Shown one piece after another: positions 4,139 through 26,576 of a stretch of 33,308 nt of DNA (position 1 is the stretch's first letter; the number at the start of each line of letters is the position of its first letter). The position numbers and the translations under genes were made by a program. This stretch comes from Elusimicrobiota bacterium (GTDB lineage Bacteria; Elusimicrobiota; Elusimicrobia; F11): the NCBI GenBank assembly GCA_046153645.1, contig JBJXGI010000077.1, positions 1-33,308 on the forward strand, written 5' to 3'. The notes under the pieces were generated by a model. It worked only from the letters and a program-made list of their open reading frames with translations. It did no database searches and was not told where the DNA came from.

Positions 4139-4207
4139 AAAGTTCTCTTGTAAATTCCTCGATACAAAGGTATCTCTTGAATACGATAGGGACTAGGAGC
4201 AACCCAT

Positions 4208-4609
4208 ATGATTTCAAATTTTATGAATTTAAGTATAAAAACGTGGTTTTCAATAATTTTAATTAAATTTCTTATAATTATTAATGGATTTTCAGTTGTT
4301 TCAGCAGATACCCATCATTTTAATATTAATACACCCACGCCTCTTTGCCCTGGGCTCAATAAAATAGAAATCGAATCTAAATCGGCGACAGATAAATTGA
4401 ATCAAAGCGACAATCAAGCCATTACAGTAATTACTTTTATTGGAGACACAAACAAAACCCAAACAATTGGATTGATATCAGGAAAACAAACAATTGAATT
4501 AGATTTAAAAAAAGACCTGATAAACATGATTCAAATTATGAGTGTAAACAATCCATTATTGGTCGCCTATAAAGACCTAACCCCAGTGCATTGTAAAGGG
4601 GAGAAATAA
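4208..4609 (+). CDS. Small exported protein, probably a single Ig-like domain resembling the first domain of the downstream giant protein
   Basis: GGAG RBS, hydrophobic signal peptide ending VVSA, beta-rich mature part (DTHHFNI...IEIESK...), two Cys. The stop codon lies 1 nt before the next ATG. Confidence 0.7.
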   Translation: MISNFMNLSIKTWFSIILIKFLIIINGFSVVSADTHHFNINTPTPLCPGLNKIEIESKSATDKLNQSDNQAITVITFIGDTNKTQTIGLISGKQTIELDLKKDLINMIQIMSVNNPLLVAYKDLTPVHCKGEK

Positions 4610-4610
4610 G

Positions 4611-5048
4611 ATGTTTAAAAAGCTGCTATCTTCAATTGGAATTATTACTTTTTTCTCTGGATTTCTTTTCGCTTTGCCAGTTCATCATTACGATATAACT
4701 AAACTGACAGATTCCGATATTAGTGTTGTAACTCGAGGAAAACAATATTTATTTCGCATTGAAGCAAAAGATATTAATGGAAATATCCCAACCTCTGGGC
4801 AACAAGAGTCTGTTGTTATTAATTGTGGTGGAGTTAGCCCTTGTAATATCTCAATTGATTCACCAGCAGACACGCCGCTTGGAAGTGGTCGTTACACTCC
4901 TGATCCAACAGGTGTTATTTTGGCAATCATTAAATTTACCAGTGCTCCTGAAGGCATTTTATTAACGGCCAAAAATTTTAATACCCCATTTATTACTGGT
5001 AGTACCCCCCATCACAGTACAAAGATTTCCAACTCAATTTTCTTTTAG
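4611..5048 (+). CDS. N-terminal fragment (signal peptide plus first Ig-like domain) of the frameshifted giant surface protein
   Basis: GGGGAG RBS and Sec signal MFKKLLSSIGIITFFSGFLFA. After ...ITGSTP the sequence continues sensibly in the +1 frame into the 5062 ORF. Confidence 0.75.
   Translation: MFKKLLSSIGIITFFSGFLFALPVHHYDITKLTDSDISVVTRGKQYLFRIEAKDINGNIPTSGQQESVVINCGGVSPCNISIDSPADTPLGSGRYTPDPTGVILAIIKFTSAPEGILLTAKNFNTPFITGSTPHHSTKISNSIFF
5005..5010 (+). repeat. C6 homopolymer at the apparent frameshift joining 4611-5048 and 5062-10494
   Basis: AGT ACC CCC C|ATC ACA GTA CAA. Removing one C gives GSTPITVQRFPTQFSFSTPLSVDAGVPFTISITALD with no stop, for a 1960-aa product. Confidence 0.65.
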
Positions 5049-5061
5049 TACGCCATTAAGC

Positions 5062-8000
5062 GTGGACGCGGGAGTTCCCTTTACCATTAGTATCACCGCT
5101 TTGGACGCGACGGCAACGACCGTGACAAGTTTTAGAGATTCTGTTCAATTAAGTGAGACATTAAACGGTTTTAATATTTCGAGTGTTTTAGGGTCTAACT
5201 TTTTTAATGGTATCGCCACTGCAACAGTCACATTAGAAGCTGGAGACGCCATTAGTCATGTTAATAGAATTCAAGGAACAAACAGTTTGGTTTATTTTGG
5301 GCAAGGCACAGCCGCTTCTGGAATCAGCAATAACATACTCGTTAATCCTGATGCCTATGATAGAATTGTTCAAGTTTTTCCTGGCGAAATCTTAACTCCT
5401 GGTATTCCTCCTGGAAAAAATTCAGCGGGAACTCTACCTCAAGTTGCTAACCAACCTGTGGTTCCTGTAAAAGTTTTTGCAACCGATCAATTTTATAACC
5501 CCATATTGGTAGGAATTCCTTCACCTTTAAATATTTCATTTTTTTCCAATGTTGGAAGTGATATTTTACCTCCAACAACTCAACTCGTTTCAAATCCGCT
5601 CCAATTCTTGGCTTCAGAATTTATTTTTCCAACTGTGGGAACAAGAATTATTCAAGCTCAACCAAGTGTCAATGTAGGAAACACAAGTCAAAGCACCATT
5701 ACTGTTAATGCGGGGCAAGTTGACCATTATTTATTTACCATTCAACCAGCCAATGGTTCTATTCTAACGGCTGATGTTCCTTTTACCATTCAAATAACAG
5801 CCTACGATTCCGCAAATAACGTAAAAATAGATTTTAACGGAACTTTTTCGGATGCATTTGAAGCCGAGTTAATTGGGACCCCTTCATTAATTGATAAGAA
5901 ATGGATTGATACCAACCCTGGAACAGAGAATCCAGATAACACCATCACATTTGTTAATGGTATCGGAAATCTATCGAATAGCATGATGATCACAAGAAAA
6001 TGGCCCAATGTGAGACTTATTTTTAGAGATGGCGCAGGAATTCAAGTTGTTTCAAATATTTGGAATATAAATGAAGGATCTCCAAAAAAGATTCTATTAA
6101 CCTATAAACCCAGTCAATCTTATACGCCTGGAACGTATCCAGGAAACAATGGGCTTCCAGCTCAAATCACAGCCGGAGATATTGTCACATTGGAAGCTCG
6201 CCTTGTTGATGGAAGATGGAATGTAACCTCAGGACCCACAACCGACAACACAACCATTACTTTAAGTGGTCAAACAAATAATCACTATATCGATATTTTT
6301 GGTGGTCTGCCAGATTTCCCACCAACAGGTGAACTTATTGCTTCTGATTCATTTCAAGTTCGCTTTAGAACAGCTGGGAACCAATATTTAAATGCTGGCG
6401 CAGGAGGGGCTTCAGGAAACTTTACAACACCAAGCGATACGATAAGAGTAAATCCTGGCACTTATGCGAAAATGGCTTTGGTCGCTCCCGGAGAAACATT
6501 GCGCCCTGGTATTCCAAGTTTATTACAACCAGATGGAAAAGAAGGAACGCCCAATATCCAACAAGTCGGCAATCCTTTTGTTTTATCTGCCTATGCAACA
6601 GATCAATATTGGAATCCAATCCAAAGCTTTACTTATCCGCGAATAGATTTTACCGTTCAAGATCCAAGTCACACGCATATACCCTTGACTCCTTTAACAA
6701 TGGGAGGATCACGTGAAGATTTCAACTTTACGCTGCAATCGCTGCTTTTACCTCAAATTACTGTTTTTGATACCGCTGATAACCTCAAACAACAAACGGT
6801 TTCTATTAATACTTCCGCTGGTGTACTAGATCATTTTGAAATGGATACCATTTCTTCACCTCAATTTGCTGGTGCTCCATTTAATATAACAATGCGGGCC
6901 GAAGATGAATTTGGAAATACCATACCTTCTCCTTTTACTGTCACTTTAACCCCTACAACAGGGACTGGGACAATGTCTCCAACCACAGTGAATCTCGTTA
7001 ATGGAACTTTCACAGGTGCCGTAACAATGTTTGCTTCATCTCCTTCTGTGAAAATAAATATGTCCATGGCAGGTCAACCCCAAGCCACAAGAGAAAGTAA
7101 TTCTTTTATAGTTTTACCATCACCTCAAGGGTATAAAAAGTTACTCCTGCTTTTAGATGGTGAATTTATTGCGCAGGGAACTATTTTAGGTAAAACAGGG
7201 TCCCCAACTCCCAAAACGGCAGGTGTTATTTCCATTGCCAGAGCGATCGCTTGTGACCCTTTTTATAATCCGGTCAATGTTTCAGGAATTGTAGAATTTC
7301 AAAGTAATCGCTACACTCAATTTGGATCTGCTCAAGGAAACTTAGTGAATATCAATGGTTACGGAGAATACGCTACAACCATGATTCCTAGAGCGGCAGC
7401 AACTCATACCGTAACATTGAGAGACGTCAATTTAGATGGAACAGTTGCCAGATCTACAAGTGTGGTAGTAGCCAATCCCGGTACTTATAGAAAAATCCAA
7501 TATTTACTTCCTGGAGAAGTTGCCGATCCAGGGACATTTTTACCCAATGGAAAAACAATTGCTCCACCACTTGATCAACAGGTTTCCCGACCATTTAATG
7601 TTCAATTAAGAGCTGTTGATGATTTTTGGAACCTTGTTAGTTTTAATGATGGGGACTTAAGACTTATCGCTGATATCACTTCCATATTCTTTACTCCTCC
7701 TAATAATCTGGGTGGTCCCAACCCAAGGAAATATTCGCTTGGAATTTCCACACGTCAAGTTATTATAGGTCAACAAGGAATAACCACCTTAGGAGTTATT
7801 GACGATCAGAATTTATCTAAACCAGGGCAATCTGTTCAGGTTAATGTTGTGCCAGGAGCCGTATACGCGTTTTATGCTTCTTCATTTGCGACGGCCGGCG
7901 TCCCATTCTCACTAACAATCCGATTAGAAGAAAATGGTGTACCCGTGGTTGGATACAATGAATCAATTTTCTTAAGCGCTGCTCTTCCCAGTGGAAACCC

Positions 8001-10494
8001 TGCCTCTGGTGCATTTAATCCCGATGGTTCAGAGAGAGAATATGTAATGAACAACGGGGTTGTTGTTATTAATGATTTAACCTACGCCTATGTTGAACGG
8101 ATTAGAGTTAAGTTAAGAGATAATTTTGCGCGAATCGCATTTTCAAATGATATTGAAGTTGCCCCAAGTGGACTTAAATACAAAATTACAGTCCCGCCAA
8201 CGGCAATAGCAGGACTTCCCAAAACTTTTAATATCAAAGTTGAGCTCCTAGAACAGAACACGAATACATTGGTCAAAAATTATGATCATTTAGTTAATGT
8301 TGAAATTTTATCAGCAATAAACCCTACGGCCGCAGGACAATATACTGTGACATCAGCAAATTTAAGCCAAGGTATTGCTGATTTTCAGCAAAGTTATACC
8401 AAAGCTGAATCTATCGTTATTCGAATAGCAGAATCATCGACCGCGGGCGTTCCAGGTTTTGTTATTCCTTCTGGAACAAGCAATAACATCACGGTTGCGG
8501 CCGATGGATATAAAAAGATTTTGCTCATTATGCCAGGAGAAACACATATTCCAGGTGTTCCCTCTTCAAGTGGAAAAACGGGAACTCCCACGACACGTCA
8601 AAAAGGCGTTCCTTTTATCGCGCAGGTACGCGCGGTGGATCAGTATTGGAATATAGACAACAGCTTTAGTGGTGGAAAAATACAATACCTTTCGAGTGAT
8701 ATTCCACCGTCAATTAATGGAAGCAATCCCACAAATCAAAATGAACCTTTTGTAAATGGTGAAAGTGCTGCCTTCTTAAAACTTTTTAATGCAGGAAATA
8801 TAACAGTAACAGCGCGTGACTCTGATAATGAAAGCATCGCTTCGCAGTCAGTTTTGCTTACGGTGGGTGGAAATTATTATCAAGTTGTCGCTCCAGCTCA
8901 GGATTTTTCAGGGCCACCCAGTGTTTGGACAGTTAATGTCACTTTAATTGACTTTATTTCTGGTAACCCCATCATTACCGCAAACCAATCGATTCGATTA
9001 AATGCATTCCTCCCTGATGGAACCACAGCACAAGGAACCCTTGGCGTTTCCAATGCAAATCTCTCTAATGGTACTGTTGGGATTTTAAATCAAAGCTACA
9101 CCATTGCAGAAAACATTATTATTCAAGTGAGTGATGATGAAGGAAATACCGGATCAAGTTCTGTTATTCAATTGATTCCAAGACAAGTGAGCTATATATT
9201 CGAAACTCCTTCCGATGCGGAAGTTAATCAACCTTTTACGGTCATTATTCGAACACTTGATAAAGATACAGGCACAAACGCGAAAAATCTCAATAGAACA
9301 AATACACTAGAAGCTTATTCGAGCCTCACCGGTCTTCCCGGAACAGGGACTTTTGTTCCTGTCGTTGCCAATATTATTAATGGAGTGGCCACCATTAGTG
9401 CTACTTATACTCGGGCCGAACCCATATTCTTGAGAATGGTTGACAACACGTCACCTTTCGCGCAAAGCCCACCCTCTCAACCCGTGTTCACCTCAGCAGG
9501 AAGTATCAATGTAAAAGCGGGCGCCTTGGCTTTAGTAGATCTCAGCAGTTTTACAATAAGATCCAACGAGACCAGAACATTTACAGTTAATTGCACTGAC
9601 GTGTATGGAAATCCCATTTCAAATCAAACATTAAACTTAAGCATTATTTCTCCAGAACTTCCTGGTCATATCGAAATGAATGGGAAAATAAATAGTTTAA
9701 CCATTAATGCTAATAGTCAAGGCCAGTTGGATATAACATTTGATCCATCATCAACAGCCAATGGTGAATATAAACTATCTATCGATGATGGGGACAGAAC
9801 GAATGGTTACAATAAAATTGTGAATATTCATGTTCAAGGGTTTCCACAAGTTCCCGCTCCTGCGCTGGCTTTAGGAGAAGATCGTATCCCGGTTAACAGT
9901 ACTTATTTCTTAAATCTACCAGAAGTTTTACTCCCAACAGGGGCCTTCAGAAGAACCTTTTATCGAATTGATGGAAGTGCCTGGTTCGCCTATGACGAAA
10001 CCATCGGAATTAAACCACAAGACGCAATAAGACCCGGGATTAATGCTTTTTTTGAAACTCGTGGTTGGGCGATCGAATATTATTCGCAAATTTGTTACGA
10101 CCTTGCTTGTGTGAATCCTATCGATGAACGTCAAATTAATGGTTCACCAAATATCGCAAGCATTCTAACCTACCAAGTGGAAGACAAACTGAATGCCTAT
10201 CCAAGTCCCTTTAATCCCAAGAGTAACGGTATTGATGGCTTTTTAACCATCCAATATCCATTGGGAACTGCTTCAACTGTAGAAATAGATATTTACGATC
10301 TCTTTGGTCAACCAGTTTGGCATAAAGACATTCAAGCTGGAGAAGAAGGGGGACAAGCAAAGTCTGATAATCGAGTGTTCTGGTCCGGCGTGAACGATGA
10401 CAATATCGTCGTTGGAAACGGCGGATACATCATCCGTGTAAAAGTAGGGGCAACTGGTCAAATAATGAAAACCAAAACACTGGTGGTGAAATAA
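5062..10494 (+). CDS. Giant repetitive Ig-like-domain surface protein/adhesin with a C-terminal T9SS type-A CTD-like/FlgD-Ig domain (main part; true start probably 4611)
   Basis: 1810 aa, rich in Thr/Gly/Pro/Asn and beta-strand-like. Recurrent AG.PF.i.i.A.D units and six PGE..PG...GK.G.P...AxDxxWN units. C-terminus LNAYPSPFNP...TIQYPL...VEIDIYDLFGQPV...WSGVND...GGYIIRVK...KTLVVK. The GTG at 5062 has no RBS and no signal peptide follows it. Confidence 0.85.
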   Translation: MDAGVPFTISITALDATATTVTSFRDSVQLSETLNGFNISSVLGSNFFNGIATATVTLEAGDAISHVNRIQGTNSLVYFGQGTAASGISNNILVNPDAYDRIVQVFPGEILTPGIPPGKNSAGTLPQVANQPVVPVKVFATDQFYNPILVGIPSPLNISFFSNVGSDILPPTTQLVSNPLQFLASEFIFPTVGTRIIQAQPSVNVGNTSQSTITVNAGQVDHYLFTIQPANGSILTADVPFTIQITAYDSANNVKIDFNGTFSDAFEAELIGTPSLIDKKWIDTNPGTENPDNTITFVNGIGNLSNSMMITRKWPNVRLIFRDGAGIQVVSNIWNINEGSPKKILLTYKPSQSYTPGTYPGNNGLPAQITAGDIVTLEARLVDGRWNVTSGPTTDNTTITLSGQTNNHYIDIFGGLPDFPPTGELIASDSFQVRFRTAGNQYLNAGAGGASGNFTTPSDTIRVNPGTYAKMALVAPGETLRPGIPSLLQPDGKEGTPNIQQVGNPFVLSAYATDQYWNPIQSFTYPRIDFTVQDPSHTHIPLTPLTMGGSREDFNFTLQSLLLPQITVFDTADNLKQQTVSINTSAGVLDHFEMDTISSPQFAGAPFNITMRAEDEFGNTIPSPFTVTLTPTTGTGTMSPTTVNLVNGTFTGAVTMFASSPSVKINMSMAGQPQATRESNSFIVLPSPQGYKKLLLLLDGEFIAQGTILGKTGSPTPKTAGVISIARAIACDPFYNPVNVSGIVEFQSNRYTQFGSAQGNLVNINGYGEYATTMIPRAAATHTVTLRDVNLDGTVARSTSVVVANPGTYRKIQYLLPGEVADPGTFLPNGKTIAPPLDQQVSRPFNVQLRAVDDFWNLVSFNDGDLRLIADITSIFFTPPNNLGGPNPRKYSLGISTRQVIIGQQGITTLGVIDDQNLSKPGQSVQVNVVPGAVYAFYASSFATAGVPFSLTIRLEENGVPVVGYNESIFLSAALPSGNPASGAFNPDGSEREYVMNNGVVVINDLTYAYVERIRVKLRDNFARIAFSNDIEVAPSGLKYKITVPPTAIAGLPKTFNIKVELLEQNTNTLVKNYDHLVNVEILSAINPTAAGQYTVTSANLSQGIADFQQSYTKAESIVIRIAESSTAGVPGFVIPSGTSNNITVAADGYKKILLIMPGETHIPGVPSSSGKTGTPTTRQKGVPFIAQVRAVDQYWNIDNSFSGGKIQYLSSDIPPSINGSNPTNQNEPFVNGESAAFLKLFNAGNITVTARDSDNESIASQSVLLTVGGNYYQVVAPAQDFSGPPSVWTVNVTLIDFISGNPIITANQSIRLNAFLPDGTTAQGTLGVSNANLSNGTVGILNQSYTIAENIIIQVSDDEGNTGSSSVIQLIPRQVSYIFETPSDAEVNQPFTVIIRTLDKDTGTNAKNLNRTNTLEAYSSLTGLPGTGTFVPVVANIINGVATISATYTRAEPIFLRMVDNTSPFAQSPPSQPVFTSAGSINVKAGALALVDLSSFTIRSNETRTFTVNCTDVYGNPISNQTLNLSIISPELPGHIEMNGKINSLTINANSQGQLDITFDPSSTANGEYKLSIDDGDRTNGYNKIVNIHVQGFPQVPAPALALGEDRIPVNSTYFLNLPEVLLPTGAFRRTFYRIDGSAWFAYDETIGIKPQDAIRPGINAFFETRGWAIEYYSQICYDLACVNPIDERQINGSPNIASILTYQVEDKLNAYPSPFNPKSNGIDGFLTIQYPLGTASTVEIDIYDLFGQPVWHKDIQAGEEGGQAKSDNRVFWSGVNDDNIVVGNGGYIIRVKVGATGQIMKTKTLVVK

Positions 10495-10495
10495 C

Positions 10496-11872
10496 ATGAA
10501 TAAGACACTTAAAAACATAATAAGAAAGAATTTTTTAGCTGTGATTGTTTTTTCTCAGGTTCTCTCTGCGCATGCAGGAGGAAGCTTTGGGCAATCTTCA
10601 GATATTTTTAATGTAGGCGCTGGAGCTCGAAGCATGGCCATGGGGGGAGCTTTTACGGGGCTTGCTGATGATGGATCTGCTTCCTATTTTAACCCAGCGG
10701 GACTTGCTTACTTAGATGAACATCAATTATTAGCTATGCATGCTCCCTTATTTATTGATACTCATTACAATTATCTCTCTTCTGCACATCCCTTTGGTGA
10801 TAAATGGGGGTCCGTTGCTGTCTCTGATTCTCTCCTCTTATCAGATGGTTTTCAAGTGAGAGATGCTTTTAACAACGTAACAGATAAAAATGGAGAATTA
10901 AGAAATAATGTTATTTTCACATCATACGCTAGAAAAATAAGACCAAAACTTTCTATTGGAGCCAATATTAAATTAATTCAGCAAAAAGTGGCTGGGTTTT
11001 CTGATGGCGCCTTTGGATTAGATTTAGGTGTTCTCTATAAGTTTCACCCGTTGCTTAATGTCGGAGCCTCTATCGGCAATGTAAATTCTCCTGAAGTTAA
11101 ACTTAGAAATGAAGCGGACGTTTTTAAACCTATTACTAAATTCGGCGTGGCATCAGAAGTATTGAAAAATAGACTTATGCTCACAGGGGACTATATAAAA
11201 TTGAGTAATCAAGATAACCTCTATGCTGTTGGAGCAGAATACAAGCTTCATAAATTCGTCGATTTAAGAACTGGTTTTAATGCCAACAAAAGCTTCACCA
11301 TGGGTATTGGTCTTAATCTAAAACAATTTCATGTGGATTATGCCTTCAGTGATACAGATATTGGGGCTTTTAATAAGGTTTCATTTACCTGGGCTTACCA
11401 TAATATTTATAAAACCAATATTGAACCTCCTATCAAAGAAGGAAAAGCCGTCTATCCGCTTTCAGGTTTTGAAAATCAAATTGCGTTTAAAACAACGGTT
11501 CCTCAGCATACCGTTATATCCAAATGGTCTTTGTTAATAAAAGATGCTGAAGGAAAAGATGTTCGAACACTCGAAGGTGATTTGGATGCCCCCAACCCCA
11601 TTATTTGGGATGGGAAAAACCAAATGGGAGAACCAGTTGTCGATGGTGAATACAACTATGCTTTCCTTGTCACATATAAAAATGGAAAATCTTGGAGCAT
11701 TCCTGGGGATTTGTTGCTAACCTTACCCCAGCGACAAAATGAAGAAATCATTGATATGAATTTAAGACTTAACGGAGCACAATCATCAGAAGCAATTCCT
11801 GTGAATAATTCGAATAGCCCACAAATTGTTCCTGTGCCTGAAACTGCTCCACAAACTGAAGAAATTAAGTAA
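10496..11872 (+). CDS. PorV/PorQ-family outer-membrane barrel with a C-terminal FlgD-Ig-like domain
   Basis: Signal peptide ending SAHA. GAGARSMAMGGAFTGLADDGSASYFNPAGL signature, FGLDLGVLY, VDYAF. Then KWSLLIKDAEGKDVRTLEG...IIWDGKNQMGEPVVDGEYNY. Confidence 0.85.
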   Translation: MNKTLKNIIRKNFLAVIVFSQVLSAHAGGSFGQSSDIFNVGAGARSMAMGGAFTGLADDGSASYFNPAGLAYLDEHQLLAMHAPLFIDTHYNYLSSAHPFGDKWGSVAVSDSLLLSDGFQVRDAFNNVTDKNGELRNNVIFTSYARKIRPKLSIGANIKLIQQKVAGFSDGAFGLDLGVLYKFHPLLNVGASIGNVNSPEVKLRNEADVFKPITKFGVASEVLKNRLMLTGDYIKLSNQDNLYAVGAEYKLHKFVDLRTGFNANKSFTMGIGLNLKQFHVDYAFSDTDIGAFNKVSFTWAYHNIYKTNIEPPIKEGKAVYPLSGFENQIAFKTTVPQHTVISKWSLLIKDAEGKDVRTLEGDLDAPNPIIWDGKNQMGEPVVDGEYNYAFLVTYKNGKSWSIPGDLLLTLPQRQNEEIIDMNLRLNGAQSSEAIPVNNSNSPQIVPVPETAPQTEEIK

Positions 11873-11892
11873 CCCTAAGGTTCAGGAGACAT

Positions 11893-14877
11893 ATGAAAAG
11901 CAAATTGACACACGTTTTAACAGCAAGTCTAATTGGAATTTTTATACATCCAAGTATACATGCCATTTCTGAAGACCCAATGGCTCAGTTTAAAATTGCT
12001 TCAACTGCTTATCAAAATAGACGCCTAGATACAGCCGAACAAGAATTTGAAGGTTTCCTTAAAGCATTTCCCTCTCATCGCTTAGCTCCTCAAGCCAGAC
12101 TTGCTTTAGGAGAAATTAAGTTTAATTTACGTAAATATCCAGATGCAGCCGAAGAATACTCTCAAGTGGTTAAAAAATTTGGCAATACCTATGAAGCTCT
12201 CAATGCCAAGTTAAGGCTTGGTCATTGCGAATATAATATGAAGAAATATTTAAGTGCAATGGACTACTTTGAAGAAGTGAAAAATAAAGCACCTAAAGTT
12301 TTGAGATCCGAAGCCCTTATAGGTAAAGGACTTTCTCTTATGTCTCTCGGTTCATATGAAAAAGCTGAAGGGACATTTATTGAATTACTTCAATCTTATC
12401 CAAAATATAAAAACAACCCCAATGCTGTGGTTCCATTAGGATTATTGTACCTTCAACGCAATCGTACCCAAGAAGCCCTTGAGATGTTTTCTTTGTTACC
12501 AATCGACATTGGGGCTCAGTACTACAAAGGAGTCACCTTAAAAAAATTAGGCCAAATTATTTCCGCTTCTCAAATGTTTAAAGATGTTTACGAAGAAGAT
12601 CCTCAAGGTTTCTGGGCTGATAAAGCACAGTTGCAAATGGCTGAAGCCTATTACTCAGTAAACGAACTCAACCTGGCTTATGATAGTTTCAGAAAAGTAT
12701 TTGATCGTTTTGCTACCAGTCCGTTAAGACCTTATGCCTTACATCGAATGGCCTGTGTTCACTTTCAACTGGGCCGTTTTCAAGAAGCCGGATTAAAATG
12801 GGAAGAACTCATTCGAACTTTTGAAGACGATGTGAATCTCCCTAATGGTATATATATGCTTGGTGAAATGGCTCTCAGACAAGGTGAATACGGAAAAGCT
12901 ATTTCGTTTTTTAGTCAAATCTCAAGCGCACATGAATTAAGAATGGATTCTCAGTATAAAATCCTTTGGTGCTTAGCTCAACAGAAACAAGATGAAACAG
13001 CGATCGCAAAATGCGACCAATTCTTAAAAGAATATCCTTGGGGTGAATTGGCGGCAAAAACTCACCTTGTGAAAGGTATTTGTCTTCAGCGAATTAAAAA
13101 GTATACGGAAGCCAACTCGGAATACCAAATTGTTATTGATCAATTTGGACAATCAATTTTCTCAGAAAAAGCAATGTATTTAATGTCCACGAGTTTATTT
13201 CAAAACAATCAACTCGCTGAAATTGTGACATCGTTAAACTCCACCTTAAAATTAGCCCCTGTGAGCCCCACTCGTTGGCAGGCAGAAACATATCTTTGGA
13301 TTGCTGAAGCATATTATTCTTTAAACCAATATGAAGCAGCTGAAAGAACTTATCAACTCGTTGTTGATAACTACAAAGAGAGTCCAAAATTAGCTCACGC
13401 CATGCTTGGGGTTGCGGCGTCATTGGCTAAAGAATCTAAGTTTGAAGAAGCCAGCATCGCGCATGAAAAAGCTTTGGTTATGGCCGAAAGTTTAAAGAGC
13501 AAGGAAGTTAAGCGTTCTGTTTTAATGGATACGGCCCAAGTTCTTTTCTCGCAAAAGAAGTATGAAAAAGCCATGGGGTATTTTGACGAGTTTGTGAACC
13601 GTTATCCAGATGATTCTTTAGTACCAGAAGCGTTATTCCAAGGAGGAATGAGCTTCTATCGATTGGAATACTACACTGAAGCATTGAATAGATGGAAACG
13701 TGTCGTCAATGAATTCTCAACAAATGAATTGGCACCAAAAGCTTTATTTGAAATTGCAAAAACCGAATTTGGTTTAGGTCATTATGATGAATCTGCTAAA
13801 CAATTTCAGTTGTTAATTGATAAATATCCTGCCTTTAAAAACAATAAAGAAGCGCGCATTCAAATTGCTCAGTGTTATTACAATCAAGGGAATTTTGATT
13901 TAGCGACAAAAAAATTACAAGAATTTCTGAATAATTATCCAAAAGATCCAAAATCGAAAGACGTTCTTGAATTGCTTCAAATGGCTCACTTTAGAGAAGG
14001 CAAAAATAAAGGTGACATGGGCTTATTAACAGAAAAATATCCACAGAGTAAATTAACTGCCGATATTTATTGGCAAATGGGGGGAGACGCTTACAATAAT
14101 AAAGATTATAAACAGGCTCTTGATTATTTCCGAAAGCTCGTTGGAGAGTTTCCTGAAGCCCAGTACACTCAACAGGCCTATTATTATATGGCTGAATCAT
14201 ATTTTAACCTTGAGAATTATCCAAGTGCAGTGACAGCTTATAGAAATTACTTGTTAAATTTTCCTGATTCTCCAAGTAGAGTTGAATCCCTTTTTAGAAT
14301 GGGTGTTAGTCATTTTCAAACACAAAACTACTCCGAAGCTGTCGTCGCTTTTAATGATGCTTTAGAAGCAAACCCAACCGGGCCATTATCTAGAGATGCT
14401 TTGGTTAATATTCCTCTTTGTTATAAGAAGTTAGGCCAATATAGCCAGACTATTTCTTCTTATGAAAGATTTTTACAAAGTTTTCCTAAAGATCCACAAA
14501 GAAACAAGGTTTTAGTTGATATGGGTGATCAAGCCATGGAACTTAAAGAATATGAACAAGCCCTTAAGTATTACAAGATGGTTTCAGAGGGGACAGAAGA
14601 ATCATACAGTTCTTATTTAGCTCAAGGGAGAGCCTATCGGTTGATGAAACAACCCAATCAAGAAATTTCTGTTTATGAATTATTAAGAACAAAGGCGCCG
14701 GCCAGTAATGAAATTCGCTTAACCGGTCTTGTGACTCTTGCTGAGTTGTACCAAGAAATGGGGAAAGTGGACAAATCAATTGCTGTCTACGATGATATTT
14801 CTAAAAATGCCAATAACCCAGATTGGAAACAAGCAGCCATTGATCGAGCCAAGGCGCTTCGATCAGAAGCTCAATAA
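11893..14877 (+). CDS. Large periplasmic tandem-TPR protein (CpoB/BamD-type repeats)
   Basis: AGGAG RBS and a signal peptide ending SIHA with no lipobox. Many ~37-aa helical repeats of the form A...y..l...yP.s..a..Al...G..y along the whole length. Confidence 0.9.
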   Translation: MKSKLTHVLTASLIGIFIHPSIHAISEDPMAQFKIASTAYQNRRLDTAEQEFEGFLKAFPSHRLAPQARLALGEIKFNLRKYPDAAEEYSQVVKKFGNTYEALNAKLRLGHCEYNMKKYLSAMDYFEEVKNKAPKVLRSEALIGKGLSLMSLGSYEKAEGTFIELLQSYPKYKNNPNAVVPLGLLYLQRNRTQEALEMFSLLPIDIGAQYYKGVTLKKLGQIISASQMFKDVYEEDPQGFWADKAQLQMAEAYYSVNELNLAYDSFRKVFDRFATSPLRPYALHRMACVHFQLGRFQEAGLKWEELIRTFEDDVNLPNGIYMLGEMALRQGEYGKAISFFSQISSAHELRMDSQYKILWCLAQQKQDETAIAKCDQFLKEYPWGELAAKTHLVKGICLQRIKKYTEANSEYQIVIDQFGQSIFSEKAMYLMSTSLFQNNQLAEIVTSLNSTLKLAPVSPTRWQAETYLWIAEAYYSLNQYEAAERTYQLVVDNYKESPKLAHAMLGVAASLAKESKFEEASIAHEKALVMAESLKSKEVKRSVLMDTAQVLFSQKKYEKAMGYFDEFVNRYPDDSLVPEALFQGGMSFYRLEYYTEALNRWKRVVNEFSTNELAPKALFEIAKTEFGLGHYDESAKQFQLLIDKYPAFKNNKEARIQIAQCYYNQGNFDLATKKLQEFLNNYPKDPKSKDVLELLQMAHFREGKNKGDMGLLTEKYPQSKLTADIYWQMGGDAYNNKDYKQALDYFRKLVGEFPEAQYTQQAYYYMAESYFNLENYPSAVTAYRNYLLNFPDSPSRVESLFRMGVSHFQTQNYSEAVVAFNDALEANPTGPLSRDALVNIPLCYKKLGQYSQTISSYERFLQSFPKDPQRNKVLVDMGDQAMELKEYEQALKYYKMVSEGTEESYSSYLAQGRAYRLMKQPNQEISVYELLRTKAPASNEIRLTGLVTLAELYQEMGKVDKSIAVYDDISKNANNPDWKQAAIDRAKALRSEAQ

Positions 14878-14947
14878 AAGTGTGAATTATCACCTTTAAA
14901 AATTTAATTTTTTAAGTAAGTTAGAAGTAAGTGCCACGGAGGACAAT

Positions 14948-15631
14948 ATGTTAAGAGAATTAGGATTCATAGGAATATTTAAAGTTAACCCACTCATTAT
15001 AGGAACGCTTATGTTTTTTTCGTTCCTCATGGTGGCTTTTCTAGTTGAGAGAGTCTGGTATTACTTGTCTCATGCCAACTGGTCTGAAGAATTTTGGAAA
15101 CGTTTAAAGGCATCTGTTCAATCTGGCCATATACATGAAGCTCGTACCATGTGTGTTCAATCAAATAATGTATATGCCCAAGTTTTTGCAACAGTTTTAA
15201 ATTCAACTCACTTGGACAGAAAAGACAACGAAGAATTAGCTCAAATTTCAAGAGAAAATCAACTAGAAAGACTTCGTAAACGATTGGGACTTTTTTCGAC
15301 TTTCTCTTTTATTTCACCTCTGGTTGGATTACTTGGAACTGTTACCGGAATCATGCAAGCTTTTTCAGATCTAGGTCGGTCAGGATCAGGTGGAGCTAAC
15401 ATTGTTGCCGCTGGTATTGCCGAAGCACTTGTTGCAACAGCAGCAGGTATTCTTGTGGCTGTACCCTCTGCTCTTTTTTATAACTTTTTTACTTTTAAAT
15501 TGCGCTCCATCGGATTAACAATGACAAATCATGCTCATGAATTACTCATCTTGGTTTATGGTGGAGAAAATTCTAGCAGAACGACGAATCCCAGTGCCTC
15601 AGGAGATCCTCGTGCAAAAGCAATCCGATAA
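14948..15631 (+). CDS. exbB: MotA/TolQ/ExbB proton-channel subunit
   Basis: GGAGG RBS, three TM segments, SPLVGLLGTVTGIMQAF and GIAEALVATAAGILVAVPS signatures. Confidence 0.92.
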   Translation: MLRELGFIGIFKVNPLIIGTLMFFSFLMVAFLVERVWYYLSHANWSEEFWKRLKASVQSGHIHEARTMCVQSNNVYAQVFATVLNSTHLDRKDNEELAQISRENQLERLRKRLGLFSTFSFISPLVGLLGTVTGIMQAFSDLGRSGSGGANIVAAGIAEALVATAAGILVAVPSALFYNFFTFKLRSIGLTMTNHAHELLILVYGGENSSRTTNPSASGDPRAKAIR

Positions 15632-16037
15632 ATTAGAAGAACCGGTCAGTGAAGTTAACATCGTCCCATTGGCCGATGTGACACTTGTATTATTGATTTT
15701 ACTGATGGTTATTTCACCTATGGCTTTACAATCTATGATTCAAGTCCAAGCTTCACAAGCGGTTGCAAGTCGAACAAAACAAGCTGTTTCTGAAAAGCCT
15801 TTATTTGTTGATGTAACCACGACTGGATTTACTGTAAATAATAACATTGTTTCAACAGAATACGAGCTATTTAGATCTCTTCAGAAAATGCTCGCGGGCA
15901 AGTCAGATAAAACAGTTCTTATCTCATCTGCTGCTGATGTTCCTTATGAAAACGTTGTCAAAGTGTTGGATTTGGTTAAACAAAGTGGTGCTATCAGTCT
16001 TTCTCTTGTTCCAAGAAAAATGGATACCCCATCATGA
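15612..16037 (+). CDS. exbD: ExbD/TolR family protein (paralogue 1)
   Basis: SEVNIVPLADVTLVLLILLMV with the conserved TM Asp, and VLISSAADVPYENVVKVLDLVKQSG. Start reassigned to the GTG at 15612 because AGGAG lies at 15601-15605. Confidence 0.9.
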   Translation: MQKQSDKLEEPVSEVNIVPLADVTLVLLILLMVISPMALQSMIQVQASQAVASRTKQAVSEKPLFVDVTTTGFTVNNNIVSTEYELFRSLQKMLAGKSDKTVLISSAADVPYENVVKVLDLVKQSGAISLSLVPRKMDTPS

Positions 16038-16462
16038 AACATTCAACTGAAACTGACGAAGCTATTTCTGGCGTTAACATCATTCCTGTTATTGATGTCA
16101 CGCTGGTTCTTCTCGTGGTTTTATTGGTTATGAGCCCTGTTATTAATATCCCAGGTTTAAATGTAAATTTGCCTGAAGCTATGACCAAAGAAACAAAAGA
16201 TGAAAATTTAACGGTTAGCCTTTCAGCAGAAGGACAAATATCGGTGGATCAAGATGTTGTCCTAAGAGAACAACTTCCAGCGATGCTAATGAAAAAATTA
16301 AAAGACAGACAAGATACTGTTATTATCGTACGCGCGGATAAATCATTGCCGTATGGCGCAGTAGAAAGCCTTATTCGTGAAGTTAATAAGTTTGCTGGTA
16401 ATAACGCGGTTGCCATTGCGACCAAACAAAGATCTTCTAAAATTGAAGGTGTTCAACAATGA
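16034..16462 (+). CDS. exbD: ExbD/TolR family protein (paralogue 2)
   Basis: SGVNIIPVIDVTLVLLVVLLV, LNVNLPEA, VIIVRADKSLPYGAV. ATGA overlaps at both ends. Confidence 0.9.
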   Translation: MKHSTETDEAISGVNIIPVIDVTLVLLVVLLVMSPVINIPGLNVNLPEAMTKETKDENLTVSLSAEGQISVDQDVVLREQLPAMLMKKLKDRQDTVIIVRADKSLPYGAVESLIREVNKFAGNNAVAIATKQRSSKIEGVQQ

Positions 16463-17793
16463 ATCGTTTTTGGTTTCCGGAATTAGAGTTAAATAAACGA
16501 GAAGTAACGTGTCTAGCTTTAGCAGCTGTTCTTCATTCGCTTCTATTTTTGTGGAAGGGCGGTATGTTAGAACTTCCCGATCAAGAAAAGTTAGGAGACA
16601 TGGTTGTTCAAGTCCAGTTTATGAATGATATGCCTGACTATGATATGCCGGGTGCCGGTGGAGGGGGGGCGCCTCAATCGACTGGTTTGCTAGATAAAAT
16701 GAAATCCCTTTTTAAAGGAAAGGGTGGCTCCGCCCCTGAAATTTCTAAAGGTGTCGACATTAAAGTTGATACAGGTCAAACTTTTACAAAAGTGGGCGAT
16801 CAATTAACCAATAAAACATTTGACGATGTAAAAGGATTTCAAGGTCTTGCCAATACAACCGATAACGTTGATATTGCTAAAGGATCAAACAAAGAAATTA
16901 TCAATAAACCTTCCCAGGGAAATTTTGAACCAGCTCCTGCAAATCTTAAAGAATCTAAATTTAAATTAGCTATGAAAGATGCTCCTTTTGCGGTAACCAA
17001 ACCCAAAAATTTTGATTCATTATCTAATGCCAATGCGGTTCCTGTGGCCATTGGTAATGCCACTTCTCAAAACATAAAATCTTTGAGTGGCGGTGTTGGT
17101 GCGGGACCTGCCCTACAGTCAAAAACAGTGGCTTCAAAAGGATTTAACCAAACAGGTTTCTCCGGTGGAGCTTCGAGTGGGGGCAATGGTTCGGGAGCAG
17201 GATCAAGTCTCTCTATGGGGGCCGGTAATGCTTTTGGAGGCGTCGCTACAGGCGGTGGCTCAGGAGCGGGAAGTGGAATGGGTAGTGGCAGTGGTGTTGG
17301 AAATGGCGGAAGTGGTTCAGGGACAGGTGGCGGATCTGGAAGTGGGACAGGAACTGGATACGGAAGTGGGTCTGGCGCCGGAAGTGGTGGTAAAGCTTAT
17401 GGTGGTGGCGGAAGTCGAGGTTTGATGTCTCTTCCAAGAAATGAAGTGGCATCCTCCGATTTAGCAACAGGTTCAGGTAATGCTTCTTCAGGCAAGAGTG
17501 GATCAACAAATCGAGATTCAAGGTTTGCTATTAGTGGCGCCCTGGCTAATCGCCCCGTACAATCAAAAGTATTTGCGACTTATGAACGAGATGGAAGGGT
17601 TTCACTCAGATTTAAAGTGGATTGGAGAGGACGTGTATTAGAAGGAATTGTTGTTGAGGTTTCTTCAGGATCACCTAGTTTTGACCAAAAGGTAGTTACG
17701 TCTTTAAAACAATGGCTTTTTAACTCACTACCAACGAGTAGATCAAATGAAATTCAAGAAGGTGTGATCACCTTTGTATTTAGGGGAGTCTAA
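16459..17793 (+). CDS. tonB: TonB/TolA-like energy transducer with a Gly/Ser-rich linker
   Basis: N-terminal TM helix with His (LALAAVLHSLLFLW), a long low-complexity linker, and a C-terminal TonB_C-like domain GRVSLRFKVDWRGRV...VEVSSGSPSFDQKVVTSLKQWLF...ITFVF. Confidence 0.8.
   Translation: MNRFWFPELELNKREVTCLALAAVLHSLLFLWKGGMLELPDQEKLGDMVVQVQFMNDMPDYDMPGAGGGGAPQSTGLLDKMKSLFKGKGGSAPEISKGVDIKVDTGQTFTKVGDQLTNKTFDDVKGFQGLANTTDNVDIAKGSNKEIINKPSQGNFEPAPANLKESKFKLAMKDAPFAVTKPKNFDSLSNANAVPVAIGNATSQNIKSLSGGVGAGPALQSKTVASKGFNQTGFSGGASSGGNGSGAGSSLSMGAGNAFGGVATGGGSGAGSGMGSGSGVGNGGSGSGTGGGSGSGTGTGYGSGSGAGSGGKAYGGGGSRGLMSLPRNEVASSDLATGSGNASSGKSGSTNRDSRFAISGALANRPVQSKVFATYERDGRVSLRFKVDWRGRVLEGIVVEVSSGSPSFDQKVVTSLKQWLFNSLPTSRSNEIQEGVITFVFRGV
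17164..17421 (+). repeat. Low-complexity (GS/GT/GG)n coding tract within the TonB-like protein
   Basis: Encodes GGGSGAGSGMGSGSGVGNGGSGSGTGGGSGSGTGTGYGSGSGAGSGG. Codons are varied, so it is not a perfect DNA tandem repeat. Confidence 0.85.
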
Positions 17794-17797
17794 TTCA

Positions 17798-18709
17798 ATG
17801 AAGACACAAAAAAGATATAAAAATACACTTTTACTAGGACTTATTCTTCTCTTAACCTCCTCAATAAAAGCGCAAGATTCAAATACGCCTCCGGCACCAA
17901 ATGAACCCATGTCAGAAACGATTCGGGGCGAAATTAAAGAACAACTAGATATTCAAAAACAACCTCCCGCTATTGAACTCGATATAAAAGAAATTGTTGA
18001 AAGCGGAACGCCTCAAACTGAAACCGTTCTTAGCGGAAGTAAACCTATTCCCAGTAAAGAAGATTTCGATAACTTCTCAACTATTTATTCACAACAAATT
18101 ATCCGAGCATGGATGCCATTATTACCTGAACCACCATTGGTTACTTTTTATCCTGGTTTGTCAAAAATTGCGACAAAAAAATGGGAATTTCGTGTTTCTG
18201 ATGAAACGGGAAATATTGTTAAAACAATTAAAGGGAAAGGGATTCCTCCTCGTCAAATCGAGTGGAATGGGTTAAATGAGAGAGGAGTTTATATTACGGT
18301 TGGAACCATTTATTCATATCAATTTGTTACTTATGACGACAATGGAAACTCCCAAACATTTCCTGGTGAACCCTTCCAAATAGATGCTCTTTTGTATCAA
18401 CAAAAAGGAAAAATTTTTATTGAATTCGCCGATAAAAAACTTTTCCAAGAAAACTCTTCGAAGATTCGACCTGAAATGGAAGGATTATGGGAAAGAGCTA
18501 TCGATGTGATTCGAGAAAATTCTAATCAACCTTTGACTATTGAAGTTTACGCAGAGAGCACGAAATCAACTTTGGCCGAAGAAAGACGTCAGGTGGCTGT
18601 TAATTCCATTTCAGATTCAACCAATATTCCAGCCGTAGATATCCGCCATAAAGTAGATAAAGCTGTTGAACGGGGAAGTATCCTTCGCCTTGTTATGAAT
18701 AAAAGGTAA
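17798..18709 (+). CDS. Exported protein with a FlgD-Ig-like domain and a degenerate OmpA-like C-terminal domain
   Basis: GGGGAG RBS before the ATG at 17798 and a signal peptide ending SIKA. KWEFRVSDETGNIVKTIKGKG.PP.QIEWNGLNERG...YSYQFVTYDDNGN, then LFQENSSKIRPE....W..AIDVIRE.....LTIEVYAES...LAEERR (OmpA_C-like pattern). Confidence 0.7.
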   Translation: MKTQKRYKNTLLLGLILLLTSSIKAQDSNTPPAPNEPMSETIRGEIKEQLDIQKQPPAIELDIKEIVESGTPQTETVLSGSKPIPSKEDFDNFSTIYSQQIIRAWMPLLPEPPLVTFYPGLSKIATKKWEFRVSDETGNIVKTIKGKGIPPRQIEWNGLNERGVYITVGTIYSYQFVTYDDNGNSQTFPGEPFQIDALLYQQKGKIFIEFADKKLFQENSSKIRPEMEGLWERAIDVIRENSNQPLTIEVYAESTKSTLAEERRQVAVNSISDSTNIPAVDIRHKVDKAVERGSILRLVMNKR

Positions 18710-21845: not shown

Positions 21846-23042
21846 TTAATAAAGAAAATATTGTTTAACCTGCTCTATAAAAATTTGTCTTTTCTGATTA
21901 TACTCGGATAAAAGAGACTCAAGACTTTTCTTTTCATTAATAAAATCTTTTAATAAATTTGAACCAGTCACAATCCGTAACTCTTCCCAATCAAACTTTA
22001 GCTCTTTAGTGTAATTTTGATGCATAAACCAAAAAGAAGCAATAAAAATCTGAAATGGTGAGATGTCTTTTCGATTTGTAACAATCATTTTGACACCGTT
22101 ACACTTTTCATTCGCATATATATCATTTAATGGAACAAATTCCACTGGTTCAAATATAACCCCTGGGAAATTAAACGCTCTCAAGTAAGCAATCAATTCT
22201 TTAGAGTTAATCCACGGTGCCCCAAAAATTTCAAAAGGTGTTTCAGTTCCTCGGCCGACAGAAATATTTGTCGCTTCAAAACATCCAATGCCTGAATACA
22301 AAAGGGCTTGGGTCAGGTTCCTGATGTTTGGTGACGGGGGAATAAATTGAAGCCCCGTCTCATCATACCAATGTATTCTTTTCCATTTTTCCATTCTTAC
22401 AATGACCAAATCTGCTTTTAACTGATAATAAGCATTCATCCAATTCGCAAGTTCGCCGATGGTTAATCCATGCCGAGTGGGGATAGGGAAATATCCTGTC
22501 ATTCTTTTGATTTCAGGATCTAATATGTCTCCGTCTGTCATATCACCTCTAATGGGATTGGGTCTGTCTAAAACAACAAACTTAATTTTTCTTTTTGCCG
22601 CCTCTTCTAATGCCATGCCCATGGTTGTGATGTAGGTGTAATAACGTGTTCCAATATCCTGGATATCAAAAATAATTGTATCGACACCTTCTAACATTTC
22701 ACTCGTTGGCCGCTGCGTTTTCCCGTATAACGAATAGATATGAATGCCTGTTCGAGAATCTTTTGAATCTTCTACTTTTTCGCCGTGTTTTAAATTCCCT
22801 CGAAAGCCATGTTCAGGAGACATGACATTAACGAGTTTGATCCCTTTGGTCTTATAGAATAAATCAACAGCACTTTTTCCATCAATTGTAACTCCGGTTT
22901 GATTTGTGATGAGGGCAATTTTTTTTCCACGAAGCGATTCAAAATTCTCTTCGCGCAATACGTCAAGCCCCGTCTTTACAGCAGCAAAACTTGATGTGGT
23001 AAAGAAAAAAACAGTGAACAATAATGTTTTAAATTTATGCAT
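21846..23042 (-). CDS. namZ: Exo-beta-N-acetylmuramidase NamZ (DUF1343/YbbC, GH171)
   Basis: VKTGLDVL, LITNQTG, SPEHGFRG, SLYG, FDIQDIGTRYYTYI, VLDRPNP, RHGLTIGELA, PPSPN, SVGRGT..PF. GAGG RBS before the ATG at 23042 and a signal peptide. Confidence 0.9.
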   Translation of the reverse strand: MHKFKTLLFTVFFFTTSSFAAVKTGLDVLREENFESLRGKKIALITNQTGVTIDGKSAVDLFYKTKGIKLVNVMSPEHGFRGNLKHGEKVEDSKDSRTGIHIYSLYGKTQRPTSEMLEGVDTIIFDIQDIGTRYYTYITTMGMALEEAAKRKIKFVVLDRPNPIRGDMTDGDILDPEIKRMTGYFPIPTRHGLTIGELANWMNAYYQLKADLVIVRMEKWKRIHWYDETGLQFIPPSPNIRNLTQALLYSGIGCFEATNISVGRGTETPFEIFGAPWINSKELIAYLRAFNFPGVIFEPVEFVPLNDIYANEKCNGVKMIVTNRKDISPFQIFIASFWFMHQNYTKELKFDWEELRIVTGSNLLKDFINEKKSLESLLSEYNQKRQIFIEQVKQYFLY

Positions 23043-24519
23043 TTTGGTCCTCTTTTTCAAAATGGCTTAACATCCAGGACACAAACATGGTCCCAAAAGT
23101 TCCAAGTAATACAAGCCAAGTCCAACCTATGACGAATATTTTTTTCTCAGTTAAAATAAGTAAAACAGAATTGATGACAGCCATTAAAATCATAGAAAAG
23201 AGGTTTGCTTTATTGGCCTTTACTTTGGTTAATAGGCCTAATAAAAAGACGCCAAGTAAAGAACCAAATGTGACACCACCAATCTTAAAAGCCAACCACA
23301 AGAATCCTGATAAGAAACTAAATAGATAAGCCAAGATAGCGAGTAATACACCAAATAACAAAACCATGATTCGAGAAACGTTAACATAGTGTTGATCCGT
23401 TTGGTTTCTCTTAATGAGGGGTCGATAAATATCAGTGACAAAAGAAGCTGTTAATGACCCCAGAGGAGAATCAATACTTGCCATAATAACGGCTGATAAA
23501 ACAAGACCTCTTAATAAAGCGGGCATTTGAAAACTTGCGAAAAAAGGATAAATATCATCAAGTTTTTGAGGAAGTGGTAACTGCGGATTATTTTGATAAA
23601 AGACAAATAGACCGACTCCAATGATTAAGTAAAAAGACAACGTAAAAAGACCTAATAAAGGAGTTGCCAGCGTTGTTTTTTGACTTTTTTCTCTGGTTTC
23701 TAATGTTAATAATCGTTGCATGAGTTCATGATCAGTTCCATAAGCAGCCATTGAACCAAAAAAACCATTTAAGATAGCCAACCACCAAATGTTGGGGTTG
23801 GTTAAAATTTGACGAAAAAAATCAGGAGAAGAAAGGTTTGGTCCCCAGTCAAAGATGCTTAATTTTCCTGCCGCAGAAGCTTGGGAAAAAATGGCCGATA
23901 TTCCTCCGGGAACTGACTGGGCTAAATAAAAAACAGTCGCACCTCCTGCAAGAATAAACGTACACGATTGCCATACATTTGTCCAAATAATGGCTTTAAT
24001 TCCACCCCACGAGATATACAAGATAGATGCGATGGAAAATAAAAGGATCGTCGTCAAGAGAGGAAGGCCGGTTAAAACCGACACCGCCGTGGCTGCCACA
24101 GTGAGTCGAACCCCCGACCCCAAAAGTCGAGTCACAAAGAAAAAACAAGTGGCCGTGTATTGCGTTAATGGGCCAAAACGAAATTTCAAAAACTCATAAA
24201 TTGTTGTGCAGTTGTACTTATAAAACGCGGGGATAAACAAATAAGCAAGAGCGATTCTTGAAGCAAAGGAGCCAATGAACAATTGCAAATAAGCCCAATT
24301 TTCTTTGTAAACAGTAGCGGGAACCGAGATGATGGTAACTGCACTAATTTCTGTAGCGACGAATGATAAACATGCTGCCCACATGGGAATTTTTCTCTCA
24401 CCTAAAAAGAAGCCTTGTGTTGTTTGATTTTTTTTACCACATAAAAAACCGATGATAAAAAGAACGGCAATCGTGAATAAAACAACCGAATAATCAATCC
24501 AAGTAAGGTTCGTTATCAT
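23035..24519 (-). CDS. Sodium:solute symporter family transporter (candidate amino-sugar uptake)
   Basis: About 13 TM segments, FFLGER.IP.WA..LSFVATEISAVT, TIYEFL..RFG, GGIKAIIWT, MQRLL, A.S.DS. Confidence 0.9.
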   Translation of the reverse strand: MITNLTWIDYSVVLFTIAVLFIIGFLCGKKNQTTQGFFLGERKIPMWAACLSFVATEISAVTIISVPATVYKENWAYLQLFIGSFASRIALAYLFIPAFYKYNCTTIYEFLKFRFGPLTQYTATCFFFVTRLLGSGVRLTVAATAVSVLTGLPLLTTILLFSIASILYISWGGIKAIIWTNVWQSCTFILAGGATVFYLAQSVPGGISAIFSQASAAGKLSIFDWGPNLSSPDFFRQILTNPNIWWLAILNGFFGSMAAYGTDHELMQRLLTLETREKSQKTTLATPLLGLFTLSFYLIIGVGLFVFYQNNPQLPLPQKLDDIYPFFASFQMPALLRGLVLSAVIMASIDSPLGSLTASFVTDIYRPLIKRNQTDQHYVNVSRIMVLLFGVLLAILAYLFSFLSGFLWLAFKIGGVTFGSLLGVFLLGLLTKVKANKANLFSMILMAVINSVLLILTEKKIFVIGWTWLVLLGTFGTMFVSWMLSHFEKEDQNA

Positions 24520-26530: not shown

Positions 26531-26537
26531 AACGAAA

Positions 26538-26556: not shown

Positions 26557-26576
26557 AAAATTTGTACATTTTTCTT

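Follow-up and report, generated by a model that had tools for sequence, protein, structure and literature searches.

An Elusimicrobiota operon combines genes for a PorV-family barrel and its putative surface cargo with those for an ExbBD/TonB-type motor and may encode a machine that pulls on a displayed protein

The secretion system of type IX (T9SS) is treated as specific to the Bacteroidota and their relatives, and its carriers as energised by GldLM. What is an ExbB/ExbD/TonB-type motor doing in the same operon as a PorV-family barrel and a surface protein with a T9SS-like C-terminal domain (CTD) in an uncultured Elusimicrobiota bacterium? The operon occupies positions 4208-18709 of contig JBJXGI010000077.1 (assembly GCA_046153645.1), of which 33,308 nucleotides were analyzed (the window), and was originally predicted to encode a hybrid, minimal T9SS-like machine that exports, displays or pulls on a dedicated adhesin. 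By our analysis, the operon is genuine and conserved and represents a variant of ExbBD/TolQR motor systems that has apparently not been described before; its mechanism is predicted. The results suggest a machine that pulls on a protein already displayed, and not an independent secretion system. In the reading that we favor, and to which we give slightly less than an even chance, the motor applies force to the displayed barrel-cargo complex after export, thereby tensioning, retracting or moving an adhesin.

All genes of the operon lie on the forward strand in one block, with gaps of 1, 1, 20 and 70 bp followed by overlaps, including ATGA overlaps at 16034-16037 and 16459-16462. The open reading frame (ORF) map therefore agrees with the co-orientation, gene order, gaps of at most 70 bp and ATGA overlaps described before. 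The earlier family calls for the PorV-like barrel with its FlgD_ig domain, the 994-aa tetratricopeptide repeat (TPR) protein, ExbB, both ExbD proteins and the TonB-like protein were likewise upheld by Pfam and NCBIfam scans, and the 27 window ORFs scanned gave no match to TonB-dependent receptor, TolB/Pal, Gld or SprA families.

The motor subunits carry the residues of a Ton-type motor. ExbB (14948..15631; PF01618) has TolQ as its nearest solved structure, followed by ExbB, and its T131 and T164, which we take to be the proton-channel threonines, are invariant in the alignment. Two different ExbD/TolR-like subunits follow (15612..16037, probably starting at GTG 15612, and 16034..16462; both PF02472), and each keeps the membrane aspartate (PLADVT and PVIDVT, respectively). 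The TonB-like transducer (16459..17793) consists of an N-terminal membrane helix with a nearly invariant His26, a Gly-rich linker and a TonB_C domain that scores 30 bits on TIGR01352 against a cut-off of 27.1; all 32 family members examined match this model. Thus ExbB, ExbD and TonB are all present with their conserved His, Asp and Thr. Upstream, the TPR protein (11893..14877) has a signal peptide, lacks a lipobox cysteine and would serve as a periplasmic scaffold.

Conservation of the gene order was assessed across 86 loci with both TPR and ExbB genes (58 clusters at 90% ExbB identity; loci with <450 aa of TPR protein were excluded). The order TPR-ExbB-ExbD-ExbD-TonB-adaptor is complete in 62 of these, the rest being cut or rearranged, and different classes of the Elusimicrobiota share it with WOR-3 loci, so called because their ExbB groups with WOR-3-named proteins. 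By cluster, a barrel gene lies directly before the TPR gene in 15 and elsewhere in the operon in 3, none is present in the DNA seen in 30, and the DNA of the other 10 does not reach far enough to decide. An unrooted tree of the TPR proteins places the window among 23 rows that form a clade (SH-aLRT, an approximate likelihood ratio test, 98), in which the barrel adjoins the TPR gene in 17/17 rows with visible upstream DNA, the window included, and the barrel-less loci form other clades. The tree was filtered at E<1e-80, which excluded several WOR-3 loci (L141-L150) and L072, all counted among the 86. The WOR-3 row sits on a long branch, so that the barrel-motor link may have arisen once or more than once. 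WOR-3 loci show the same order and the same barrel link, but with a cargo of 210-256 aa, and the link survives rearrangement in L072, L228, L231 and L236. When contigs were searched with ExbB alone, six loci were recovered: two close relatives (L001 and L002) and four other ExbB genes (L003-L006). Several barrel-less modules lie next to a 250-aa TPR gene and tilS-ftsH. Four barrel-less modules (L052:9080-12229, L055:9804-13004, L062:10265-13411 and L233) carry, between TPR and ExbB, a ~1050-aa protein of repeated FlgD-type Ig domains, which ends in an OmpA domain with an intact motif in L052 and L055.

The barrel (10496..11872) belongs to the PorV/PorQ family (112.9 bits on NF033709, whose cut-off is 90), and its profile matches F. 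johnsoniae PorV (6h3i_F, E 2e-20). It does not reach the PorV equivalog NF033710 (31 against 250) and falls below the cut-off of the PorP/SprF family PF11751 (16.5 against 22.3 bits). Its structural model (pLDDT 87.8) consists of 14 strands followed by an Ig domain, and the closest folds are 8gl6_F and 6h3i_F, with the FadL family next. The FlgD-type Ig tail (~11480-11719) is probably periplasmic. This tail is found on 27/29 barrels in module loci, versus 1/21 barrel ORFs of this genome. Its distribution was also followed in a sample of 151 Elusimicrobiota genomes, which are kin to each other, so that no statistic is attached to the counts. All 14 tailed barrels found in the sample lie within 10 module-bearing genomes (10/10, against a base rate of 26/151). 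Three of the 14, in G009 and G038, have no motor genes downstream, and two of these directly follow a CTD gene, an arrangement that clients served from a distance would show. Two loci (L226, G009:C79; L227, G038:C44) are cassettes of CTD cargo and Ig-tailed barrel without adjoining motor genes, in genomes that encode the motor elsewhere.

The last gene of the operon encodes a candidate target of the motor. Its product, which we call the adaptor (17798..18709, likely start ATG 17798), is a soluble periplasmic protein of 303 aa with a signal peptide, a TonB-box-like strand, a FlgD/CTD-type Ig domain and an OmpA-fold domain. The model (pLDDT 85.1) shows a disordered N-terminus followed by the two domains; its fold matches are OmpA/MotB (Z 11-14) and the PorU C-terminal domain 6za2 (Z 9.4). 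The gene had been called OmpA-like; the fold bears this out structurally, although no OmpA Pfam match was obtained. As to its predicted role as an anchor, its motif, judged against the genome's true OmpA proteins, is degenerate at the residues that we assume to bind peptidoglycan, with the GHTD Asp absent and the Arg position occupied by R in 44% and Q in 40% of sequences.

The box-like strand lies directly after the signal peptide and is PMSETIRGE in the window (17906..17932; disordered in the monomer model), with the family consensus L-x-[DE]-V-[VT]-[IV]-K-G-E. The pattern occurs in 44/80 distant adaptor homologues, compared with a shuffle mean of 1.8 (maximum 6 in 500), and at a threshold of p<0.05 a box profile recognizes 6/36 true receptor N-termini of the phylum (e.g. 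LEEVIVTAT, LDEVVVTAT) and 0/16 other exported proteins; for the adaptor of the host's second module, the slice scored started downstream of its box. Prediction of a complex between TonB_C (345-444) and the mature adaptor scored 0.00 against a mark of 0.32, with the controls unfolded, and is not used as evidence. In the window's subclade, both proteins depart from the family: the YP helix of TonB_C (17490-17793) is shortened, and Glu replaces the usual Val of the adaptor box. These paired deviations may reflect co-evolution. Binding of such boxes by TonB proceeds through strand addition, and their sequence may vary (PMC11658791).

The putative cargo is a giant surface protein made of a chain of Ig-like repeats (4611..10494). 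It was described as a ~1960-aa protein, which holds as a read-through length; no such ORF exists in the assembly, where the gene is split into 4611-5048 (145 aa) and 5062-10494 (1810 aa) around a run of six C (5005..5010) that marks either an assembly error or a real break. A same-family genome (G148) encodes a single intact ORF of 1967 aa, 48.6% identical from its residue 120 onward. Since this alignment begins at window position 5011, in the downstream frame, and runs to the end of the gene, the 1960 aa represent the read-through length. Intact relatives measure 1892-1977 aa, and no listed contig from four public DNA runs (one study, fragmentary, examined over 4200-8000) spans 5005-5010. PGE..G and D.Y/F.N motifs recur along the protein, whose Atlas neighbors are unnamed clusters, with Ig/invasin-like families at lower score as a lead only. 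Its CTD-like C-terminal domain (10198..10494), ending in KTKTLVVK, scores 18.5 bits on TIGR04183 against a cut-off of 23, which ten other matches in the genome exceed, and matches FlgD_ig at E 6e-4; it is also matched by a profile of the genome's own CTDs, a profile that included this CTD. The idea of a giant cargo as an obligatory part of the system does not stand, since WOR-3 loci carry the 210-256-aa cargo instead.

The search for sprA in the host genome (G000, 99.7% complete), proposed with the original prediction, found an SprA-like translocon gene of 1801 aa (G000:C100:33154-38559, L012). It lies far below the TIGR04189 cut-off, and a profile of its 13 phylum homologues matches F. johnsoniae SprA at E 4e-28. 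The genome also contains 23 PorV-family matches (14 over cut-off) and 17 CTD-model matches, and 10/16 CTD-ended ORFs have their own barrel gene directly downstream. Cargo-barrel pairs occur on contigs C20, C30, C33, C40, C69, C71, C74, C84 and C99 in what resembles a one-cargo, one-barrel code, and several host barrels carry other C-terminal tails that look by eye like LysM or TPR domains. CTD-ended proteins of 8730 aa (G000:C79:12501-38693) and 4107 aa (C84:1525-13848) have no motor genes adjoining. Neither GldK/L/M/N nor PorU was matched in the host genome, and GldM was found in 0/151 genomes, although no control genome passed these cut-offs. In the 151-genome sample, SprA-like genes are found in 142 genomes, PorV-family genes in 143, TonB-dependent receptors over cut-off in 85, and the module in 26, as scored by a single TPR query at E 1e-50. 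Scoring of PorV-family genes stopped at about 13 per genome, a cap that keeps their numbers from being correlated with the module. The wide occurrence of the SprA-like translocon (142/151), in a sample that gave no GldM match and in which 109 genomes show a single ExbD match, raises the question of its energy source.

Because of the SprA-like translocon, the 23 PorV-family matches, the 10/16 CTD-barrel pairs and the 116/142 SprA-bearing genomes without the module, export is explained without the module; the 4107- and 8730-aa CTD proteins fit the same view. What survives of the original prediction is that the operon displays or pulls on a dedicated adhesin, and its description as a secretion system is weakened. 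Two outcomes named beforehand as refuting the prediction, a gene order not kept in other genomes and a motor that tracks with TonB-dependent receptors, did not occur. A self-contained secretion system was rejected, as the operon contains no translocon, and a universal motor of the SprA-like translocon was rejected on the counts of 26 module and 142 SprA-like genomes.

From what is known of Bacteroidota T9SS carriers (PMC10994853, PMC9143113), the cargo would cross the outer membrane through the SprA-like translocon and, on leaving it, be attached via its CTD to a PorV-family barrel of its own that would retain it on the surface. ExbB and the two different ExbD proteins, whose families and key residues are conserved, would form a proton motor driving the TonB-like protein. 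TonB_C would then grip the box-like strand of the adaptor in place of a receptor, and the adaptor and TPR scaffold, which co-occur with the tail, would relay force to the periplasmic Ig tail of the barrel. The six-gene motor module would be the core, and cargo-barrel cassettes, in the operon or elsewhere, its exchangeable clients.

Several observations weigh against the view that force is applied to the displayed complex. Thirty of the 58 dereplicated loci have no barrel in the DNA seen, and the host's second six-gene module (G000:C29:57638-65141, L007), which adds a 252-aa protein and lies directly before tilS-ftsH, as in G148, L167 and L168, has neither barrel nor cargo. A cargo of 210-256 aa, as in WOR-3, would make a poor long-range adhesin, and in this assembly the reading frame of the giant gene is interrupted. 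In 16/26 module genomes, no tailed barrel was found at a strict threshold among the 11 candidates scored per genome. Orthologues from this very operon served to build the profiles of tail and barrel, which makes the specificity of these profiles partly circular. The definition of the box pattern followed inspection of the alignment, 30/36 receptor N-termini do not score with the box profile, and the window's own box departs from the family consensus. Finally, the pairwise contacts (TonB-adaptor, adaptor/TPR-tail and CTD-barrel) are all predicted, and no track or directional component is evident.

Known systems share parts with the operon, and on tested features it belongs to none of T9SS, Ton, Tol-Pal or Agl-Glt. 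Like the T9SS carriers and gliding adhesin (PorV-type A CTD, SprF-SprB and PorE-PorP-PG1035; PMC10994853, PMC9143113, PMC12635249), it pairs a CTD-like cargo with its own 14-strand carrier barrel, in a genome with an SprA-like translocon, and has periplasmic TPR, Ig and OmpA-fold parts and a proton motor that would act on the carrier. SprF-SprB and PorE-PorP-PG1035 are precedents (PMC9143113), and the working proposed here would resemble that of SprF-SprB, an adhesin carrier driven by a proton motor (PMC12635249). The operon differs in having an ExbB/ExbD/TonB motor in place of GldLM, with no Gld family match, and the genome in the lack of a detected GldK/N track or PorU (again, no control genome passed the cut-offs). 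Because its barrel, which is of the PorV family and Ig-tailed, lacks cysteine, an SprF-type disulfide link is absent. The PorE-PorP-type B CTD anchor, with its PorP/SprF barrel and fused TPR-WD40-CRD-OmpA lipoprotein, does not correspond either: TPR and Ig/OmpA parts are encoded here by separate genes, with no beta-propeller and no lipobox or lipid anchor.

The Myxococcus Agl-Glt core (aglR/Q/S and gltC/D/E/G; PMC3169522, PMC11761067) resembles the operon in combining a single TolQ-like subunit with two distinct TolR-like ones, a TonB-like transducer, large TPR proteins and a link to outer-membrane barrels that present an adhesin. The modeled binding of GltG to GltD, a TPR protein, and to GltF, a small protein, is a precedent for the coupling proposed here (PMC11761067). 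In contrast, the operon's transducer has an N-terminal membrane helix and no FHA match, its barrel and cargo are of T9SS type, and no GltI/GltJ-like gene is present. The GltG model NF033760 is matched by 1/32 transducers (E 1e-3), and NF033768 scores below cut-off.

Could the motor instead power export itself? The secretion reading of the original prediction, in which a dedicated energiser extracts the barrel-cargo complex from an SprA-like translocon and replaces GldLM for this carrier class, is in our judgment unlikely. In F. johnsoniae, the energy-requiring step is carrier-substrate extraction, which needs the TPR protein SprE (PMC10994853); moreover, an SprA-like gene occurs in 26/26 module genomes, and GldK/L/M/N were not found (with the control caveat above). 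However, the 116/142 SprA-bearing genomes without a module and the 109/151 with a single ExbD match speak against this reading, as do the genome's other CTD-barrel pairs, whose barrels lack the tail and which have no adjoining motor genes; nor is an SprA gene labeled in the locus maps.

We consider it similarly unlikely that the six-gene core is a second Tol-like envelope machine that moves or tensions outer-membrane components in the service of envelope upkeep, with the adaptor combining the roles of TolB and Pal and the cargo-barrel pair as one client among several. TolQ is the closest solved structure to ExbB, most loci are barrel-less, several of them with the 250-aa TPR gene and tilS-ftsH, and the adaptor has both a box-like strand and an OmpA fold; the multi-Ig protein with an intact OmpA motif, added in four loci (L052, L055, L062 and L233), points the same way, and TPR-tolQ-tolR-tolR cores of unknown function are on record (PMC3169522, PMC12204202). 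As in Tol-Pal and in TPR-tolQ-tolR-tolR-vWA operons (PMC12204202), the transducer would target a periplasmic protein, an OmpA-fold partner is encoded, and the order TPR-tolQ-tolR-tolR recurs. On the other hand, the module is missing in 125/151 genomes, the peptidoglycan motif of the adaptor is degenerate, and a separate, full Tol-Pal set is encoded on other contigs (C100 has TolB and Pal, and C101 a TolQRA-like set), with no TolB or lipoprotein Pal in the operon; identity with Tol-Pal itself was rejected. From the vWA operons it differs in a transducer that ends in TonB_C and in the linked CTD cargo and carrier barrel; TPR-tolQ-tolR-tolR operons that encode vWA transducers are described in a 2025 survey of force transducers, whose available text makes no mention of PorV (PMC12204202).

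That the operon is an ordinary Ton system powering unlinked TonB-dependent receptors, with the cargo-barrel pair as a chance neighbor, is very unlikely. The operon shares with the Ton system (PMC11658791) the motor families, the conserved His, Asp and Thr, TonB_C and a box-like target strand. The genome encodes two receptors on other contigs with no motor genes or tonB adjoining, and only three TonB_C proteins; receptors occur in 24/26 module genomes, and CTD-barrel pairs are so abundant that one chance adjacency is possible. Nevertheless, a profile that recovered 36/40 receptor fragments found no 22-strand receptor in any of the 86 loci (0/86), 61/85 receptor-bearing genomes have no module, and 2/26 module genomes (G112 and G130) have no receptor match, so the motor does not track with receptors. 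The barrel link in 17/17 informative clade rows and in WOR-3 also argues against chance, and this reading would leave unexplained the TPR protein of ~1000 aa and second ExbD paralogue, both fixed parts of the module, the adaptor, which places the box-like strand on a soluble periplasmic protein, and the barrel tail. A split importer, in which a ligand caught by the cargo would enter through a FadL-like barrel that the motor opens by way of an adaptor supplying the box that the barrel lacks, is about as improbable: FadL/TodX channels are the next-best fold matches, locus L050 ends in a FadL-like gene and the adaptor does carry a box-like strand, but PorV is best by sequence and fold, the tail follows the last barrel strand and forms no plug in the model, and the locus maps, whose neighbors were not family-scanned, show no conserved neighboring gene for catabolism or inner-membrane uptake.

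The remaining features lie outside the motor-barrel-cargo core. The first gene of the operon (4208..4609) encodes a small exported protein of 133 aa with a signal-peptide-like start; it had been labeled an Ig protein, yet it has no Pfam or NCBIfam match. Its position is loosely conserved: in G148, the giant gene is preceded by one of 140 aa that begins similarly ('D(P)THHF'), and L063/L064 have 247-251-aa genes there; phmmer and blastp gave no significant match. Promoter and terminator scans did not rise above chance (51 versus 44.6 and 14 versus 13.8, respectively). A second PorV-family gene (240-1355; NF033709, 129 bits) lies at the start of the contig, where any upstream cargo gene would be off the contig, and a peptidoglycan-recycling cluster occupies 21846-28783 (NamZ, a sodium:solute symporter, AnmK, an SIS-domain protein, GH3 and a BadF-type kinase). 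Genes that look by eye like those for flagellin, FliD, FliS, MotA and MotB are present at G000:C58:28342-35563; the organism may therefore have another motility system. A literature search found no description of the operon or of T9SS parts in Elusimicrobiota, with most subscription journals and supplements outside the search. A requirement for giant cargo was rejected on the WOR-3 loci, as noted above.

With force on the displayed barrel-cargo complex as the favored reading, the operon brings PorV/CTD components together with an ExbBD-TonB motor in two phyla other than those of the classical T9SS. It is conceivable, if somewhat doubtful, that it represents a third, independently assembled adhesin-moving machine, in which a T9SS-type carrier and cargo are joined to a Ton-type motor through a free periplasmic TonB-box adaptor. 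If so, Elusimicrobiota and WOR-3 would be capable of gliding-like or retractile adhesion without GldLM or Agl-Glt, and SprA/PorV/CTD export could join a different motor. The adaptor, a soluble protein carrying a box-like strand, is a candidate target for TonB distinct from both receptors and TolB. The operon would add an output to the 5:2 proton-motor family and would bear on the evolutionary assembly of T9SS export and gliding.

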